Shown: in pieces, positions 35,183-46,710 of the stretch
Position numbering within the stretch: the first letter of the stretch is position 1
Layout: each line of letters starts with the position of its first letter
NCBI GenBank assembly: GCA_039028615.1
Contig: JBCCHT010000026.1
Coordinates: 96,001 to 160,000, forward strand
Direction: 5' to 3'
Source of the DNA: Myxococcota bacterium
GTDB lineage: Bacteria > Myxococcota_A > Polyangia > Nannocystales > Nannocystaceae
DNA: 64,000 nt
The notes under the pieces: generated by a model
What the model saw: only the letters and a program-made list of their open reading frames with translations
Database searches by the model: none
What the model was told of the DNA's origin: nothing
Translations under genes and position numbers: made by a program

Positions 35183-35803
35183 TTAGAGCGTCGGCCACAC
35201 CGCGGCCGCCATCCCACACGCGACCTGCGCTCTCTTCAGTGCGTTCGCCGTCGCATTTCCGGTACCGGCGCGGTGGAACTTGCCCTTGCGGATCTCGTAA
35301 ACGAGGCAGTAGCTCGGGTGAGCTTGGCCTGCCGGGTTGACCGACGTCATGTAGTGGTGGAGCAGCGTCGCCATCGTCTTGCCGACCCCGCGAGCGAGAG
35401 GTTCCTGGTTGGGGTAGAGCTTCAGCGCGCCCTTGCCCTTGGGGCCATCGAGCAGCACATCGGGGAATACCGAGATGTCCACCCCGTGGTAGTGCCAGTA
35501 TTTCTGCTTGGCGTTCGGTCGCTGCTTGAGCACCTTGACTCCCTTCGGAAGTTTGAATGGCTGCGCCTTGAAGGCGTTCACCACCGCTTGCTCGTGGGGG
35601 CGAAGTGCTCGTCCGCCTGGTTTGCCGTTCTTGAGGAGGCCGACCAAGTGGTGGAGTGCATTGACATAGCCGAGCATGGGACCCGACCGAGGGTATTTGT
35701 GGCCGGTGAGGATCGTCTGCTGGGCCATCGGAGTATGCGGCGCCATCAGCTTGGCGAGCGAGGAGAAGGTCAAACGAGGCGTGGTGTGGATCTTGGTCGG
35801 CAT
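35183..35803 (-). CDS. Basic hypothetical protein, possible degenerate PD-(D/E)xK fold
   Basis: ISVFPDVLL...GALKLY pattern; starts 16 nt after the caspase stop. Confidence 0.65.
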   Translation of the reverse strand: MPTKIHTTPRLTFSSLAKLMAPHTPMAQQTILTGHKYPRSGPMLGYVNALHHLVGLLKNGKPGGRALRPHEQAVVNAFKAQPFKLPKGVKVLKQRPNAKQKYWHYHGVDISVFPDVLLDGPKGKGALKLYPNQEPLARGVGKTMATLLHHYMTSVNPAGQAHPSYCLVYEIRKGKFHRAGTGNATANALKRAQVACGMAAAVWPTL

Positions 35804-35819
35804 GATCGAGTTCGGTTCG

Positions 35820-43194: not shown

Positions 43195-46100
43195 TCAGCG
43201 TTCGTCGCCGAGGTCGTCGAGTGAATCAGGTTCAACCGCTCGGAACCCGAGGTACGCCACGCGGTTGTCGGCATTGCGATTGAGGCGATACGCAGACCGT
43301 GCCTTGCGAGCGGGGTCGATCCAGCATCCACCGCGGATCACTCGGTTTCCATTCTCGAGCGGAGGATGGCGGAGCCCGTCACCGGTTCTCGGTGGGCAGC
43401 CGCGGTAGTCGCCGAACTCGTCGAGGCACCACTCCCACACGTTGCCGTGGACGTCGTAGAGCCCCAGCGGGTTGGCGTCCAGCTCACCCACCAGGTGTAG
43501 CCTCTGCTCGGAATTGTCGGCGTACCAACCGACCCGCGCGAGGTCCGAGTCTTCCCAGCCCGACCAGAAGGCGGTCCGGGTTCCTCCTCGAGCGGCACGC
43601 TCCCATTGCGCTTCGGTGGGGAGCGACAGCCCGGCCCACTCGCAGTAGGCCTTGGCCTCGTGCCAGGAGACGCCGACCACGGGCTGACGCGGTTGGTTGT
43701 AGCGGCCGTCTCCCCAGTATTTGGGCTCCAGGACCTTTGGGTTGGCCCGCAGATAGTAGCCATACTCCTCGTTGGTCACCGGGTGCGTCCCCATGAAGAA
43801 ACGGTCGAGCTCGACGTCGTGACGGGGACCTTCGCTACCTTTGCGGCCTCGCTCTCGACCATGCGAGCCCATCTTGAAGCACTCGGCGGGAATCAAGACG
43901 AGGCCGTAGCCACTCTTGGTGGACACACGGTGCTGCGGTTCCGGTCGTTGCTCTGGCAGGAAGAGCCGACGGAGAGGCTCATGCGGGTGCCGGGCCAGCT
44001 GTTCGGACACGGTCGATAGCCGATCGGGCTGAACCCTCTTCAGGAGCTGGGCGGCGGCGATCTGGCCGGGCCAGTGCTCTGGGCTGTCGTCCGACGGGGT
44101 GAGCAAATACTCGAGGAACGGCTCGATGCTGGCGTCCGCGGCCTCGCGGAGGCAGTCGACGAGTAGCTCGAGATGTTCTCCGACCATCGGTTGCTTCAAG
44201 ACCTCGCGGATCGTCGGCACGAAGAGCGCGGGCTCGCCGAGTGCGAGCAGCAAGATGGTCACCTCGCGCCACCACGGGTCGCCGAAGTGCTCGGCCAGCC
44301 GCTGGAGGATGCTGGGGTCACCGTGGGAGAGGCTTCGTAGGTGTCGGGCGCACAGGTATTCCTGGAAGCACAGGTGGAGCAGTCCGTAGCTATCCGATTC
44401 CTTCGAGCACAGGATGCCATCTTCGGTGCTCACGTTCTTTAAGAAGGCTTCGGCGTCGACGGGGTCGTCGTAGGCGAGAGCCGCATTGAGATGGGGCTCG
44501 ATGACACGGGCGATGGATGCAGCGTCGGCGTGGGTACGGCCTCGTTCCTCGTGCAGCCAGTACGCCAAGGGCTGCAGCAGCTGGTGTGCTTCGCGATCGC
44601 CGAAGCGACGGGGAAGCTCACCTCTGCCGCGCCACTTGTGCAGGAGGACCTGGAGGCACTGCTCGTAGAGCTCGCCCCGCCTGGCGGGCAAGCCTCCACG
44701 TTGGTGAAACACGGCGCACAGGACCGTGAGCATCAGGGGATTGCGGGCCAGCTCGAACATCCGAGTCGCTCGAAATTCGGGCGCCTCCAGCTGAGTGGAT
44801 AGCGCCTCGGCGCGACGTCGCGCCTCGGATGCCGACAGCCCTTCGTCGGAGGCACGGAACCATCGGACGATGAGGTTCTCGGCCTCGGCCTTGCCCAAAG
44901 GAGGGAGCTGGACCTCGAGCACGGGGGTCGACCATCGTCCCTCGGAACCCGGCTCCAACGGTCGCTGGGTGAGCATGAAGCGGGCTCGGGGATGTTCTCG
45001 CAGGCCCTGGTCGATCCACCGCGTGACGCGCTCACGACGTTCATGCGTGGGGAGCTCGTCGAAACCGTCGACCAGGAAGAGCAGGTGTTTCCGCTTCAGG
45101 AGCGCATCGATGAGCGAAGCGTCGACGCGAGAGTCTCGTTGCAGATACGTAGTAATGGCATCGTGCAGATCTTCGAGCTCGGGCGGCAGCTCGTGGAGAG
45201 GGAGCACGATCGGCACCGTATCGACCGGGAGCCCGAGGGTCTTGGGGTTTCGCCGCGCCAGCCACAGCGCGACACGTCGAAGATGCGTGGATTTGCCCGA
45301 GCCCGGGGGACCGACCAGCACGACGACTCGGCAGTCCTTCTTGGCTGCCTGCTGGAACACCTGGTGGAGTTCGAAGTCCGGCTCCTCGGTGTCTGGCGCG
45401 TCGTCGTCCGTCGAGCGAGCCGGTGTCGGCCTGACTTTCACGCGGAGGTCGTCGATCCGGAGTGTGTTCTCGAGCAAGGCGCTGGGTCCCAGCATGGTCG
45501 TGGTGGCGCTGTCTTGCTCTACGAGTTCGAGATAGCCCGACACATCTCGCGCTGGCCGTCGCTGGGTACTGGATGACGGGGTCGCCGTCCTCTGGCGTTT
45601 CGGTGCTTTGCTCCGCTTGGGCTTGGCGGGGGATGGTCCGTCGTTCTCCGGGGAGGCGGCGTTAGAGGGCGGAGGCTCGTCGGCGGCTGGAGCCTCGGCG
45701 GGCAGAGGTAGCGGTCGTACGGGCTTCATGGCACCGCCCTGCCGCCACTCGTGAAGGTTGTGAGTCACCTTCGAACCGACGTTCTCCGGTGTGAAACGAA
45801 TCGTGACCTCCTCTGCCTCGAGGCGAGATTTGAGCGCTTGAAGGCGACTTTGCTTGGCCCAACGTTGATCCAGGGCGTCGAACGCCCGGCCGACGACTAC
45901 GGGTTGCTGTTCGTCGATCAGGAAGACCAGCCGAGGGATCTTCTGCTCCAGTGCCCATTCGTACTCGAGTTCGATGAGTGAGCGGTCGTGGTCGGGTGGT
46001 GCGTCGCCGTAGCGCCACGACACCATCATCAAGAAGAGATCACAGCTCTCGAGTTGCTTTCGACGAGCTTCGAGCGCTGCCGTTCCGGCTCCGCTGGCGA

Positions 46101-46710
46101 GGGGCTCTTGAGGTACGACGACCATGCCGACCTCCTGGATTGTCTCGAGTAGCTGGTCGCGCAGGTCCGCGTCGTGATCCATGGTGGACGAGAGAAACAC
46201 CCGATAGGGAGTGGGGGCCGCAGGTTCGGCTGCTCCCGGCCATCCCGCTTGCGGTGAGTCCCCGAGCCGCTGGCGAAGCGCTGGTCCCGGATCGAAGCCG
46301 ATGATCAGCTCTGGTGCCTGTCCGGTGACACCCGCGATCAATCGTTCGAAACCGTCGTGATCGGTGAGGTCGACCCATGTGCGCGCCCGTAGGAACCCGT
46401 CGATGCTGTCCTTGGAGGCACCCGGTAGCAGGACGGGGATGACCCGGCTTTTGGATTGATCGATGAGGGCGAGCTGGCTTTCCTGGTCTCTCCAGGCATC
46501 GGCTCCTCCGGGCCCGAAGAACACCGCGACGGTCTTGCTGCTCTCGATCGCTTGCTCGAGCGCAGGGACCCACTGTTCGCCTGGTACCAACATCCACCGC
46601 CGAAAGTAGGGGTGCAGTTCGGCTTCGCTCCGTAGCCGTTGTGCGAACACTTCGACCTCGGATTCATCGTGATTGGTATGCGAGAGGAAGACGTCGTATT
46701 CGTCGGACAT
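43195..46710 (-). CDS. TIR-DUF4062-NACHT-FGE/sulfatase-modifying-factor domain protein (NLR-like STAND NTPase)
   Basis: TIR YDVFLSH...WRDQE; DUF4062 VFLSST...SCDLF...RYG...ELEYEWA; Walker A GPPGSGKST, Walker B LVDGFDE, NPLML; FGE motifs PVTNEEY, LPTEAQWE, GNVWEW, RGG and GFR. Confidence 0.92.
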   Translation of the reverse strand: MSDEYDVFLSHTNHDESEVEVFAQRLRSEAELHPYFRRWMLVPGEQWVPALEQAIESSKTVAVFFGPGGADAWRDQESQLALIDQSKSRVIPVLLPGASKDSIDGFLRARTWVDLTDHDGFERLIAGVTGQAPELIIGFDPGPALRQRLGDSPQAGWPGAAEPAAPTPYRVFLSSTMDHDADLRDQLLETIQEVGMVVVPQEPLASGAGTAALEARRKQLESCDLFLMMVSWRYGDAPPDHDRSLIELEYEWALEQKIPRLVFLIDEQQPVVVGRAFDALDQRWAKQSRLQALKSRLEAEEVTIRFTPENVGSKVTHNLHEWRQGGAMKPVRPLPLPAEAPAADEPPPSNAASPENDGPSPAKPKRSKAPKRQRTATPSSSTQRRPARDVSGYLELVEQDSATTTMLGPSALLENTLRIDDLRVKVRPTPARSTDDDAPDTEEPDFELHQVFQQAAKKDCRVVVLVGPPGSGKSTHLRRVALWLARRNPKTLGLPVDTVPIVLPLHELPPELEDLHDAITTYLQRDSRVDASLIDALLKRKHLLFLVDGFDELPTHERRERVTRWIDQGLREHPRARFMLTQRPLEPGSEGRWSTPVLEVQLPPLGKAEAENLIVRWFRASDEGLSASEARRRAEALSTQLEAPEFRATRMFELARNPLMLTVLCAVFHQRGGLPARRGELYEQCLQVLLHKWRGRGELPRRFGDREAHQLLQPLAYWLHEERGRTHADAASIARVIEPHLNAALAYDDPVDAEAFLKNVSTEDGILCSKESDSYGLLHLCFQEYLCARHLRSLSHGDPSILQRLAEHFGDPWWREVTILLLALGEPALFVPTIREVLKQPMVGEHLELLVDCLREAADASIEPFLEYLLTPSDDSPEHWPGQIAAAQLLKRVQPDRLSTVSEQLARHPHEPLRRLFLPEQRPEPQHRVSTKSGYGLVLIPAECFKMGSHGRERGRKGSEGPRHDVELDRFFMGTHPVTNEEYGYYLRANPKVLEPKYWGDGRYNQPRQPVVGVSWHEAKAYCEWAGLSLPTEAQWERAARGGTRTAFWSGWEDSDLARVGWYADNSEQRLHLVGELDANPLGLYDVHGNVWEWCLDEFGDYRGCPPRTGDGLRHPPLENGNRVIRGGCWIDPARKARSAYRLNRNADNRVAYLGFRAVEPDSLDDLGDER

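Follow-up and report, generated by a model that had tools for sequence, protein, structure and literature searches.

Can an NLR-like protein act as the sensor for a protease cascade in which a CHAT protein is followed by a caspase, an arrangement so far known only downstream of CRISPR signalling? The question is raised by a contig of a myxobacterium of the family Nannocystaceae, from which a stretch of 64,000 nucleotides (hereafter the window, with positions counted from its first letter) had been read in an initial annotation as holding a compact cascade of this kind. All six genes named there are present, with the catalytic residues ascribed to them (H76 and C137 in the caspase, H81 and C148 in the CHAT protein). 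The unit is larger than the five or six genes proposed, as a 63-aa ORF, a 367-aa gene and a gene for a STAND + HerA-like ATPase had been overlooked. The placement of the caspase gene stands, with its boundary at 35820, whereas the block start given as 35183 belongs to a separate 206-aa ORF (35183-35803, minus strand), which matches no family, lacks a counterpart in the syntenic loci and was excluded. The cassette is discrete, spans 35820-51814 (~16 kb) and has a lower GC content than its surroundings (0.62-0.66 within vs. 0.67-0.71 outside). Its genes are:

35820..37709, minus strand: PCaspase-like C14 cysteine protease, 629 aa (ORF, motifs, PADLOC, PDB, homologues)
37722..37913, minus strand: 63-aa Zn-ribbon-like ORF (ORF, DNA alignment, tblastn)
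38032..40686, plus strand: Ser/Thr protein kinase, PCk-like, 884 aa (Pkinase, PADLOC C3a189)
40777..41187, plus strand: 136-aa protein in the PCi position, predicted beta-sandwich (family alignment, AF2)
41165..41902, plus strand: ECF-type sigma-70 factor, PCc-sigma-like (Sigma70_r2, r4_2, ECF, TIGR02937)
41969..43120, plus strand: CHAT-TIR protein, 383 aa as ORF (Pfam CHAT and TIR_2, PDB 8tl0)
43195..46755, minus strand: TIR-DUF4062(NIR)-NACHT-FGE/FGS NLR-like protein, 1186 aa as ORF (Pfam)
46890..47993, plus strand: 367-aa protein of no known family (conserved beside the NACHT gene)
47990..51814, plus strand: STAND + HerA-like ATPase, 1274 aa (Pfam, PADLOC mad8)

The two proteases carry intact dyads. 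The caspase comprises an N-terminal caspase/metacaspase-like domain followed by ~350 aa of family-specific C-terminal domains, and its motifs FFGHGG (H76) and IIDCCH (C137) contain residues that are invariant in all 15 aligned homologues. A Pfam search gave no match, even at E 10; the protein is recognised by the PADLOC ‘caspase’ model PDLC02987 (E 4.5e-8), weakly by NCBIfam caspase_w_EACC1 (E 1e-5, below the family cut-off) and by metacaspases in the PDB (E 0.005). Homologues of ~630 aa number 35. Among 401 genomes in the class, 65 match this protein family; most of them fall into three bacterial families, and multiple copies per genome are frequent. The 63-aa ORF shares the strand of the caspase gene, lies 12 nt upstream of it and encodes a Cys/His-containing protein that resembles Ada-Zn and ‘sunset’ domains but stays under the family thresholds (NCBIfam sunset, E 0.0016 and 18.5 bits against a cut-off of 27; Pfam Ada_Zn_binding, E 0.0067). 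Its conservation in a four-locus DNA alignment is codon-like, and tblastn retrieved it, with 50-57% identity, from five distinct loci, each of them a CHAT-TIR locus.

The CHAT-TIR protein (Pfam CHAT, E 2e-7; TIR_2, E 2.9e-20) joins a minimal CHAT protease domain (1-235, with His81 and Cys148) to a TIR domain (240-365); its database copy begins 17 residues further in than the 383-aa ORF. All 18 homologues compared keep both dyad residues, and the relatives form 41 clusters (42-100% identity), 38 of which are labelled with both domains. In the PDB the CHAT domain finds 8tl0 as its top match (E 7e-12) and the TIR part matches bacterial TIRs. Since the 148-aa TIR is the sole non-protease part, the protein has no obvious sensor domain. 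The WxxxE glutamate of this TIR is kept in six of 11 loci (Q in four, A in one) and in 10 of 18 database homologues, and this frequent loss suggests that a TIR fused to CHAT can do without catalysis. The genome itself has five TIR_2 matches, among which a CHAT-TIR query finds only the TIR of the NACHT protein (31% identity, E 1.1e-4); judged by this search, the NACHT TIR is the closest TIR paralogue of CHAT-TIR in its own genome.

Passages of the Steens preprint describe a cascade that runs from cA3 through SAVED-CHAT to PCaspase and on to PCc-sigma and PCi, and in the CalpL preprint 8tl0 is referred to as ‘the SAVED-CHAT structure’. As reference for the module we used a related locus (L249), whose SAVED-CHAT protein matches 8tl0 at E 5.7e-140, so that the comparison with the H. 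ochraceum proteins themselves runs only via the CHAT domain (8tl0). The proposed kinship to this module is borne out by the caspase (30% identity over 316 aa, E 1e-26, with the C-terminal domain also matching at E 9e-6), the kinase domain (45% over 290 aa, E 3e-58) and the sigma factor (32% over 188 aa, E 7e-23), as well as by a shared order of caspase followed by divergent kinase, small ORF and sigma factor. The difference lies on the CHAT protein, where, as had been claimed, TIR takes the place of SAVED (Pfam finds TIR_2). In keeping with the proposed independence from CRISPR, a search of the organism's genome (96.7% complete) found no RAMP protein.

The kinase (Pkinase, E 3.6e-40; top PADLOC model C3a189 ‘kinase’, E 9.5e-78) has its kinase domain at 84-350; a hydrophobic stretch follows near 357-377, and the C-terminal region is long and helical. 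The sigma factor ORF (41075-41902) may start at 41165 (M31) or 41249 (M59) and matches Pfam Sigma70_r2, r4_2 and ECF as well as TIGR02937 (E 7.6e-23). Between the two lies a 144-aa ORF (40753-41187) whose conserved Met9 gives a protein of 136 aa from 40777; its family (~138 aa) occupies this position in 12 loci, with D69, F70, W92, R94 and P141 invariant. The AF2 model predicts an all-beta sandwich for residues 58-135 (pLDDT 76-88 over 61-130) and leaves the N-terminal third unmodelled; it has no PDB match at E <= 0.001, a CI-2-like match was looked for and not found, and no family in Pfam, PADLOC or NCBIfam recognises the protein. It shares the position of PCi, but its equation with PCi is not supported by sequence comparison (BLAST E 0.29, hhalign probability 4.3%).

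The candidate sensor is the TIR-DUF4062-NACHT-FGE protein (Pfam TIR_2, E 1.7e-22; DUF4062, E 3.6e-12; NACHT, E 1.4e-16; FGE-sulfatase, E 5e-48), which probably starts at Met16 (46710) and has intact Walker A (GPPGSGKST) and Walker B (LLFLVDGFDE) motifs. The putative catalytic WxxxE glutamate of its TIR is present in seven of seven homologues, a weak test given their mutual identity of only 55-67%, and its retention is compatible with both an enzymatic (signal or NADase) and a scaffold function. For DUF4062 (NIR), activity as an NADase effector in its own right has been reported in Avs-type proteins, so that the NLR may also act alone or could be complete as a system. The NACHT gene is convergent with CHAT-TIR, so the two are not co-transcribed, and it shares its promoter region with the 367-aa/STAND + HerA pair. 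The 367-aa gene is divergent from the NACHT gene, adjoins it in this orientation in all six loci that reach far enough, and its final 4 nt coincide with the beginning of the gene that follows. Its product has two conserved helical regions and a variable Pro/Lys-rich linker; no family was found for it in Pfam or NCBIfam, its atlas clusters are named hypothetical protein only, and its AF2 model is poor (pLDDT 51). The last gene encodes an AAA_16/STAND-type NTPase (~250-510) with a HerA/FtsK-like ATPase (~860-1250) (Pfam AAA_16, nSTAND1, HerA_C and DUF87; PADLOC mad8, E 6.3e-21), and is 67-71% identical in five other loci.

The neighbourhood recurs: the whole block appears in identical order in three other loci (L034, L035 and L115), where the eight genes from caspase to STAND + HerA (nine ORFs including the 63-aa ORF) are collinear, and two cut contigs (L116 and L114) hold consistent parts. 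Gene order repeated at 45-71% protein identity, between flanks that are unrelated from locus to locus, implies more than chance. No gene accompanies CHAT-TIR as closely as the NLR gene does, with the TIR-NACHT gene adjacent and convergent in nine of the ten loci with room for it and the sigma gene directly upstream in only six of the same ten, counts that are not independent since the loci come mostly from one bacterial family. Where the caspase module sits at the opposite end of the block (L036/L248), CHAT-TIR is still beside the NACHT gene, and in L117 and L118 no sigma gene was seen in the 1.4 to 2.6 kb upstream. The exception among the ten is L119, where no NACHT gene and no caspase lie within 10 kb of CHAT-TIR. 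A fusion of CHAT-TIR with NACHT was looked for and not found.

A parallel set of loci makes a link from sensor NTPase to CHAT more credible than adjacency alone would. Of seven SIR2-CHAT loci, six have a SIR2-nSTAND1 gene as direct neighbour, and in five of these, L234 being the exception, that gene includes WD40 repeats. The STAND-fused SIR2 carries G and C, in five of five aligned sequences, at what we take to be the catalytic Asn and His positions. The caspase module is also paired in relatives with SAVED-, EAD1-, FGE-, TPR- or STAND-fused CHAT (a CHAT ORF is found in 19 of the 41 caspase loci examined), and the organism's own genome has a CHAT fused directly to an AAA_16 NTPase (contig C88). 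This matched-domain pattern supports a wiring from sensor NTPase to CHAT to caspase that would run via like-with-like domain contacts. The underlying idea has a precedent: passages of Kaur et al. 2021 deal with STAND-FGS proteins that carry TIR or adaptor domains at the N terminus, and set out an ‘EAD principle’ of homotypic recruitment. Complex prediction for the NACHT TIR (1-160) and the TIR of CHAT-TIR (236-383) gave a score of 0.43 (three controls, 0.00 at most), with runs agreeing in at least 89% of contacts and partner pLDDT of at least 74. Among solved complexes 116 of 157 reach the pass mark, as do two of 215 mismatched pairs; passes at scores <=0.60 comprise only 18 of the 157, together with both of the passing mismatches. 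The prediction thus falls in a weak band and lends weak support to the contact, and, as TIR-TIR complexes have already been solved, it may reflect likeness to known structures.

Gene content, catalytic residues, module homology, cassette recurrence and the matched-domain pattern are established. We consider it about an even chance that the cassette is a CRISPR-independent relative of the SAVED-CHAT/PCaspase cascade with the NLR-like STAND protein as its sensor, and we infer the binding, cleavage and phenotypic steps of the pathway as follows. The C-terminal FGE/FGS lectin-like domain of the NLR would bind an invader-derived molecule and the NACHT module would oligomerise with ATP; the N-terminal TIRs, once clustered, would recruit the TIR of CHAT-TIR through TIR-TIR contact and so bring CHAT domains together. 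Activated CHAT would cleave the 629-aa caspase-like protease. The caspase would then have a broad activity that extends to its operon partners (sigma factor, 136-aa protein, perhaps the kinase), so that infected cells would stop growing or die and transcription would respond through the sigma factor. At the same time the NLR may deplete NAD+ by means of its DUF4062 (NIR) domain.

Physical contact may not be what couples the NLR to CHAT-TIR and the caspase. The NACHT TIR or DUF4062 could instead make an NAD-derived product or lower NAD+, with the CHAT-fused TIR as receptor or NAD+ gauge, and we know of no TIR domain that serves as receptor for a TIR product. The uneven fate of the WxxxE glutamate (7/7 in the NACHT TIR vs. 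only 6/11 loci in the CHAT TIR) would suit such a division of labour, as would the NAD-binding folds of both the TIR/TIR and SIR2/SIR2 pairs, the reported NADase activity of DUF4062 and, in type IV Thoeris, a TIR product that can turn on a caspase-like protease. Nevertheless, no signal could be made where the STAND-fused SIR2 lacks its presumed catalytic Asn and His (5/5), and physical coupling is suggested by relatives such as EAD1-CHAT, CHAT-FGE and CHAT-AAA_16; we hold a small-molecule link to be rather improbable. We regard as unlikely, though deserving somewhat more weight, that one island carries two or three independent defence systems, the NLR (perhaps with the 367-aa/STAND + HerA pair) being a self-contained Avs-like NADase system and CHAT-TIR activating the caspase without it on a trigger of its own, e.g., TIR self-assembly. 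Defence genes are known to cluster, the NLR carries its own sensor, switch and NADase-type effector, the convergence of CHAT-TIR and NACHT genes and the divergent NACHT/367-aa pairing (6/6) would both fit, and L119 has a solitary CHAT-TIR. Clustering alone would hardly explain the SIR2/SIR2 pairs in six of seven other loci, however, nor the position of CHAT-TIR beside the NACHT gene in nine of ten loci even with the caspase module moved or not seen, and CHAT-TIR is without an obvious sensor domain.

The circuit might also serve no antiviral purpose, being one of regulated proteolysis, kinase and sigma factor that governs development, kin discrimination or programmed cell death in myxobacteria, with the NLR responding to a cue from self or sibling cells. 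The caspase family is found chiefly in social bacteria with large genomes (the 65 of 401 genomes above), sigma factors and kinases are typical regulators, and passages of Kaur et al. tie such systems to a multicellular habit; yet the closest characterised relatives function in CRISPR or CBASS immunity, STAND-FGE, TIR and DUF4062 are described as defence-associated in the literature consulted, and the lower GC and unrelated flanks fit a mobile island, so that we hold this reading to be very unlikely. For the NLR-triggered CHAT and caspase cascade, the literature searched gave no description of an NLR-linked CHAT-TIR and caspase cassette. With its NLR-like sensor beside a CHAT/caspase cascade, the myxobacterial cluster points to a candidate inflammasome-like defence pathway.

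The cassette consists of nine ORFs between window positions 35820 and 51814, arranged as follows.

Genes of the cassette (window coordinates, strand, product)
35820-37709, minus: caspase-like protease, 629 aa, with the motifs FFGHGG (H76) and IIDCCH (C137)
37722-37913, minus: 63-aa ORF, 12 nt upstream of the caspase gene on the same strand
38032-40686, plus: Ser/Thr kinase, 884 aa, divergent from the caspase gene
40753/40777-41187, plus: small protein
41075/41165-41902, plus: ECF sigma factor
41969-43120, plus: CHAT-TIR, 383 aa, Pfam CHAT and TIR_2
43195-46755, minus: TIR-DUF4062-NACHT-FGE protein (NLR), 1186 aa, convergent with CHAT-TIR across a 74-nt gap
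46890-47993, plus: 367-aa protein of no known family, divergent from the NACHT gene
47990-51814, plus: AAA_16/STAND NTPase with a HerA/FtsK-like ATPase (STAND+HerA), 1274 aa

The initial annotation had placed the left end of the system at 35183, which falls in an unrelated 206-aa ORF (35183-35803); since this ORF matched no family and has no counterpart in the related loci, it was left out. GC content is 0.62-0.66 across the cassette (window 38001-52000) versus 0.67-0.71 on either side, which is consistent with acquisition as an island. A promoter and terminator scan of positions 35000-52500 returned nothing above shuffled sequences (1 against 1.6, and 7 against 9.2). At window 37960-38000 (columns about 320-345 of alignment A5), in the gap that separates the 63-aa ORF from the kinase start, lies an invariant block, GTGAGC(A/T)AGCTCCG, which holds a GAGCTAGCTC-like palindrome, is conserved in four loci and may be an operator or promoter element. 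The window also contains five paralogous Ser/Thr kinase genes (1-843, 9865-13026, 22003-24669, 29935-33171 and 38032-40686), which explain all of its long dispersed repeats (families D1, D2, D4, D6 and I1-I4). On the minus strand at 33326-35122, a 598-aa ORF joins N-terminal ECF sigma regions 2 and 4 to a C-terminal DsbA-like thioredoxin domain via a Pro/Cys-rich linker, an unusual fusion provided that the ORF is one gene. The next gene after the cassette (51723-54170, plus strand) encodes an 815-aa protein that weakly resembles VolA/Pla-1-family phospholipases (E 1.3e-14, under the cut-off), and is not conserved together with the cassette.

CHAT-TIR proteins are rare, forming 41 clusters (42-100% identity) among 5.8 billion proteins, 38 of which carry both Pfam labels. 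A sample of 400 other genomes of the phylum yielded no full-length CHAT-TIR; 22 of them had single-domain partial matches (23 of 401 including the window's own genome). Scans of species genomes and metagenomes with an 18-sequence alignment gave at least three loci spanning both CHAT and TIR among the 80 species-genome matches listed, and at least seven among the 80 metagenome matches listed. The recurring neighbourhood of caspase, CHAT-TIR and TIR-NACHT genes that had been anticipated was borne out, as tblastn with the window proteins and ORFs recovered the whole run from caspase to STAND+HerA in the same order, at 45-71% identity, in three loci (L034, L035 and L115), and pieces consistent with the cassette in two shorter ones, L116, which breaks off within the small gene, and L114, a contig of 3.7 kb. 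The genes that flank the cassette in the window have no counterpart in any of these five loci, except for paralogous TPR-kinases.

Among the loci from the matches listed, which are mostly from one bacterial family and hence not independent samples, the TIR-NACHT-FGE gene is adjacent to and convergent with CHAT-TIR in nine of the ten with room downstream, a sigma gene lies directly upstream of CHAT-TIR in six of the same ten, and the pair of 367-aa and STAND+HerA genes follows the NACHT gene in all six that reach far enough. The exception to the first count is a solitary CHAT-TIR (L119, 6697-11113; 51% identical) directly downstream of the NAD(P) transhydrogenase genes pntA/pntB, with no NACHT gene or caspase within 10 kb. 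A rearranged locus from a genome of the window's genus (L036, continued by L248, 100% identical in the overlap) has CHAT-TIR, NACHT, the 367-aa gene and STAND+HerA, then a divergent module of caspase (25% identical), kinase, small protein and sigma, so that the module is joined at the far end and not upstream of CHAT-TIR. Over all these loci, then, the NLR gene is the most constant neighbour of CHAT-TIR. Among 15 longer relatives, considered as possible CHAT-TIR-NTPase fusions, none had a NACHT domain.

The 63-aa ORF was found only in loci of the CHAT-TIR type (five distinct loci), and has a YHxxxC...GYxPCxxC-type pattern that weakly resembles sunset/Ada-Zn domains, below family thresholds. 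The 367-aa protein matched no Pfam, NCBIfam or PADLOC family and, in the atlas, only clusters of hypothetical proteins; its AF2 model (six sequences) reached a pLDDT of 51. A further locus (L257, 8951-19899) contains a 631-aa caspase, a TPR-CHAT and a caspase fused to a DUF559/REase-like domain, followed by a protein related to the 367-aa one at 27% identity and by a STAND gene, which on sequence similarity is a second, independent link of this pair to CHAT/caspase genes.

In the type III-B CRISPR system of Haliangium ochraceum, Steens et al. (10.1101/2023.06.23.546230) report that cA3-induced oligomerisation of SAVED-CHAT activates CHAT, which cleaves PCaspase, and that PCaspase then cleaves PCc-sigma, PCi and unrelated proteins. 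The same five-gene cassette, with TIR in place of SAVED, had been proposed for the window. We made the comparison via stand-ins, namely 8tl0 for CHAT (the SAVED-CHAT structure, as cited in the CalpL preprint) and, for the other members, a locus (L249) reached through a class-wide caspase-alignment search that matched 65 of 401 genomes; this locus runs SAVED-CHAT (E 5.7e-140 against 8tl0), sigma, 145-aa ORF, kinase, caspase. In the PDB, the window CHAT domain matches 8tl0 best (E 7e-12; query 14-208, chain 286-462). Against L249, the N-terminal part of the window caspase is 30% identical over 316 aa to the 670-aa caspase (E 1e-26) and its C-terminal domain matches at E 9e-6, the kinase domain is 45% identical over 290 aa (E 3e-58), and the sigma factor is 32% identical over 188 aa (E 7e-23). 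The 629-aa caspase itself has no Pfam match, even at E 10, and is picked up by the PADLOC 'caspase' model (E 4.5e-8) and by PDB metacaspases (E 0.005); its family counts 35 proteins of about 630 aa, four of which bear a precomputed Peptidase_C14 label. For the kinase, the best PADLOC model is C3a189 'kinase' (E 9.5e-78). The catalytic dyads, initially described as intact, are invariant as well: His/Cys of the caspase in 15 of 15 aligned sequences, and H81 and C148 of CHAT in 18 of 18 homologues.

Judged by these similarities, four of the five module members (CHAT, caspase, kinase and sigma) are homologous to the SAVED-CHAT/PCaspase module, and the proposal stands to that extent; for the small protein, similarity could not be demonstrated. 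CHAT has a His/Cys dyad in both systems, and each includes a caspase-like protease (about 630-670 aa) that shares its N- and C-terminal domains with its counterpart, plus a kinase, an ECF sigma and a small ORF whose relative order agrees. The sensor head differs, with an N-terminal SAVED on CHAT there and a C-terminal TIR on CHAT here, and only the window cassette has the NLR, the 63-aa ORF, the 367-aa protein and the STAND+HerA ATPase as extra conserved genes. Pfam detects CHAT and TIR_2 only, and no SAVED domain, on the window CHAT, and the PADLOC SAVED_CHAT model matches the CHAT part alone (E 0.0022). With TIR in place of SAVED, the system would therefore take no cyclic-oligoadenylate input. 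Its independence of CRISPR, proposed earlier from the window, agrees with the lack of a RAMP (PF03787) match in the window's own genome (96.7% complete; the control search was positive in 5 of 14 genomes) and of any CRISPR-like repeat array in the window; a SAVED search of the same genome gave no match, but its control also matched nowhere, so that this negative is uninformative. Some ECF sigma factors are controlled by Ser/Thr kinases through phosphorylation, and by analogy sigma phosphorylation may be the working mode of the cassette's kinase-sigma pair.

The small protein occupies the same position as the 145-aa ORF of L249 and is of similar size (136-144 aa), and sequence comparison of the two gave a BLAST E of 0.29 and, with hhalign, a probability of 4.3% (E 0.0096). 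PCi, a small inhibitor, has a predicted CI-2-like structure (Steens et al., 10.1101/2023.06.23.546230). The AlphaFold model of the small protein (13 sequences) is an all-beta sandwich, with pLDDT 76-88 over residues 61-130, and is not CI-2-like; a PDB search found nothing at E <= 0.001, CI-2 came up with neither Foldseek nor the atlas, and all atlas structure matches are generic Ig-like ones with TM below 0.5. Kinship to PCi or CI-2, which neither BLAST nor hhalign supports, is thus not claimed, given the lack of a PDB match and the low TM values.

The NLR, described initially as a convergent TIR-DUF4062-NACHT-FGE gene beside CHAT-TIR, has all four domains by Pfam: TIR_2 at residues 22-140, DUF4062 at 185-268, NACHT (E 1.4e-16) with intact Walker A (GPPGSGKST) and Walker B (LLFLVDGFDE) motifs, and FGE-sulfatase at 951-1174 (E 5e-48). 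Both FGE sensors and DUF4062 effectors are known from the STAND defence literature (Kaur et al.; the 2026 STAND survey in Nature; 2026 DUF4062 preprints), and in the 2026 preprints DUF4062 is reported as a TIR-like NADase effector (NIR) of Avs-type proteins that also adjoins NACHT in human NWD1, NWD2, TEP1 and NPHP3. Because of this reported activity, the NLR may itself deplete NAD+ through its DUF4062. Like Avs and other bacterial NACHT antiphage proteins, among them DUF4062-bearing Avs2 and sensors of the STAND-FGE/FGS type, it combines N-terminal TIR-like, NADase-type domains, an intact-Walker NACHT and a C-terminal sensor of FGE-sulfatase fold in one polypeptide; unlike them, it bears two N-terminal domains (TIR and DUF4062) and is constantly paired with a separate CHAT protease bearing the same kind of TIR. 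This constant pairing suggests that the NLR would act in trans, instead of or besides using its own effector. No template/variable repeat pair of the DGR type was found for the FGE domain, the only repeats being those of the kinase paralogues and a coding 15-nt repeat.

The pairing of sensor and protease extends beyond TIR. In 41 caspase loci (40 regions around caspase-family matches plus contig C88 of the window's own genome), 19 have a CHAT ORF, and the partner domain of CHAT changes between loci.

Domains fused to CHAT and where they occur
TIR: the window type
SIR2_2: seven loci
SAVED: L249
EAD1: L253
FGE-sulfatase: L260
TPR: L257, L260, L240
AAA_16 NTPase, direct fusion: C88 of the window's own genome, two copies

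In six of the seven SIR2_2 loci, SIR2-CHAT adjoins a SIR2_2-nSTAND1 gene, which carries WD40 repeats in five of the six (not in L234), and the STAND-fused and CHAT-fused SIR2 domains detect each other at 29-39% identity; in the remaining locus (L232) the SIR2-STAND gene was not found. In the six loci with both genes (L228, L230, L231, L233 and L235, at about 9000-17000, and L234), caspase, SIR2-nSTAND1-WD40 (about 1520 aa) and SIR2-CHAT form an operon that is divergent from kinase, small protein and sigma. In TIR and SIR2 loci alike, therefore, the CHAT-fused domain agrees in kind with the one at the N-terminus of the adjoining STAND sensor, and among them we found no mismatched pair (in L232 and L119, no STAND gene was found). 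The 12.9-kb piece that is L253 holds no EAD1-bearing NTPase beside its EAD1-CHAT. On contig C88 (L194, 1-12096) we also observed a second caspase module of the window's own genome (sigma, TPR-kinase and 641-aa caspase), flanked by the CHAT-AAA_16 pair, whose two genes share 89% identity, and by a 758-aa protein whose CHAT domain is C-terminal; a third (caspase, kinase and two sigmas) lies on contig C14 (L264).

The matched pattern is an extension to enzyme folds of the 'EAD principle' of Kaur et al. (2020/2021), who also recorded STAND-FGS proteins with N-terminal TIR or adaptor domains. As in the EAD-coupled STAND systems they describe, the sensor NTPase carries a small domain at its N-terminus, of which a separately encoded effector has a second copy. 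Caspase-like peptidases and FGS sensors are also part of that repertoire, and an EAD1-CHAT lies beside this caspase family in L253. Those systems use alpha-helical EADs, whereas the enzyme folds found here (TIR, and SIR2 in relatives) are not among the EADs named there, and the recruited effector of the cassette is a proposed initiator protease for a second protease.

Whether such paired domains serve as scaffold or signal was addressed at their catalytic positions. At the position that we take to be the catalytic glutamate of bacterial TIR NADases, the NACHT TIR is invariant (7 of 7 homologues), whereas just 6 of 11 loci keep E in the CHAT TIR, four having Q and one A; L035 has a complete cassette, yet Q at this position of its CHAT-TIR. 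At the positions scored in the SIR2 alignment, presumably those of the catalytic Asn and His, all five STAND-fused SIR2 sequences show Gly and Cys, and of six CHAT-fused ones all show Asn and three show His. These losses imply that at least one partner of each pair can do without catalysis, and the residue patterns favour a contact role for the matched domains over a catalytic one, with product sensing possible in the TIR version. The window's own genome encodes five TIR_2 domains, of which CHAT-TIR as query retrieves only that of the NACHT protein. The TIR-TIR contact proposed earlier passed the mark in complex prediction, with a score of 0.43 for the NACHT and CHAT TIRs (0.00 for the best of three controls), at least 89% contact agreement between runs and partner pLDDT of at least 74. 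Of 157 solved complexes, 116 reach that mark, as do 2 of 215 mismatched pairs, and the score lies in the weak band of 0.60 or under, which holds only 18 of the 157 solved complexes and both passing mismatches. The model thus weakly supports a contact between the NLR and CHAT-TIR, and known solved TIR-TIR assemblies may be behind its pass.

From comparative genomics, on which all functional claims rest, we infer a path in which the FGE-domain sensor of the NLR would bind a ligand, NACHT would oligomerise, CHAT-TIR would be recruited through TIR-TIR contact, proximity would activate CHAT, and CHAT would cleave the caspase, with broad proteolysis plus sigma and kinase outputs to follow; we consider the chances of this overall path to be about even. 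Set against it is the view that independent systems merely travel together in one island. The solitary CHAT-TIR could be read in this way, the matched domains and the near-constant NLR neighbour, kept even where the module is joined at the far end in L036/L248, less easily, and we think it unlikely. Alternatively, a small molecule could link the two TIRs, a view that fits the invariant glutamate of the NACHT TIR and the substitutions in the CHAT TIR, and which appears decidedly unlikely. A developmental or kin-recognition role instead of an antiviral one seems to us very improbable. Beyond the path through TIR-TIR contact, a wider reading can be put forward tentatively, and with some doubt: STAND/NLR apoptosome-like platforms would recruit a CHAT initiator by catalysis-dispensable TIR/TIR or SIR2/SIR2 pairing, CHAT would fire the caspase and the kinase/sigma programme, TIR and SIR2 would act as death-fold-like adaptors, and the logic of NLR, initiator and executioner would predate animals.

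Several known systems share parts of this logic. Type IV Thoeris (Rousset et al.) likewise has a TIR upstream of a promiscuous caspase-like executioner, and consists of two genes, a stand-alone TIR making N7-cADPR, which is bound by the caspase's C-terminal domain; in the cassette, by contrast, a CHAT protease intervenes, one TIR being fused to it and the other to the NLR (Pfam), so the architecture is not that of Type IV Thoeris. Type III-E Craspase (TPR-CHAT/Csx29, Csx30, CASP-sigma) and CalpL/CalpT/CalpS couple a protease to the release or control of an ECF-like sigma in an immune locus, and are described with one protease step, RNA-guided or cA4 input and unrelated substrates, unlike the cassette. 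In the animal apoptosome and inflammasome, a STAND oligomer (APAF-1 or an NLR) recruits an initiator protease homotypically and an executioner follows, which is the same proposed logic by analogy only; the adaptors there are CARD or PYD, and here TIR or SIR2 with a CHAT protease as initiator.

The downstream module, the NLR architecture and the homotypic-adaptor idea are already in print separately. In the main texts searched, we found neither CHAT-TIR nor SIR2-CHAT proteins by name (the supplementary neighbourhood tables of Steens, Kaur and the STAND survey could list variants): 'CHAT', 'sigma factor' and 'SIR2' are all missing from Kaur 2020, and 'CHAT' is also absent from the main texts of the Nature 2026 STAND survey and the 2025 protease-module preprint. 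Within the main texts covered, the initial impression that this exact wiring is undescribed holds, and what is new is the constant pairing of a TIR-bearing NLR with CHAT-TIR upstream of a PCaspase module, plus the SIR2/SIR2 parallel. The matched-domain pattern (TIR/TIR, SIR2/SIR2, EAD1 and direct fusions) offers a testable rule for predicting sensor-protease pairs, and bears on the long-standing question of TIR as scaffold or enzyme, as one partner here can dispense with the catalytic residue. A CHAT-to-caspase amplifier with exchangeable sensor heads may also be of interest for protease-based reporters. If the proposed path is true, the only known bacterial cascade in which a protease activates a protease would move from its CRISPR/cyclic-nucleotide setting to an NLR-like receptor, and apoptosome and inflammasome signalling would gain a tractable counterpart in bacteria.
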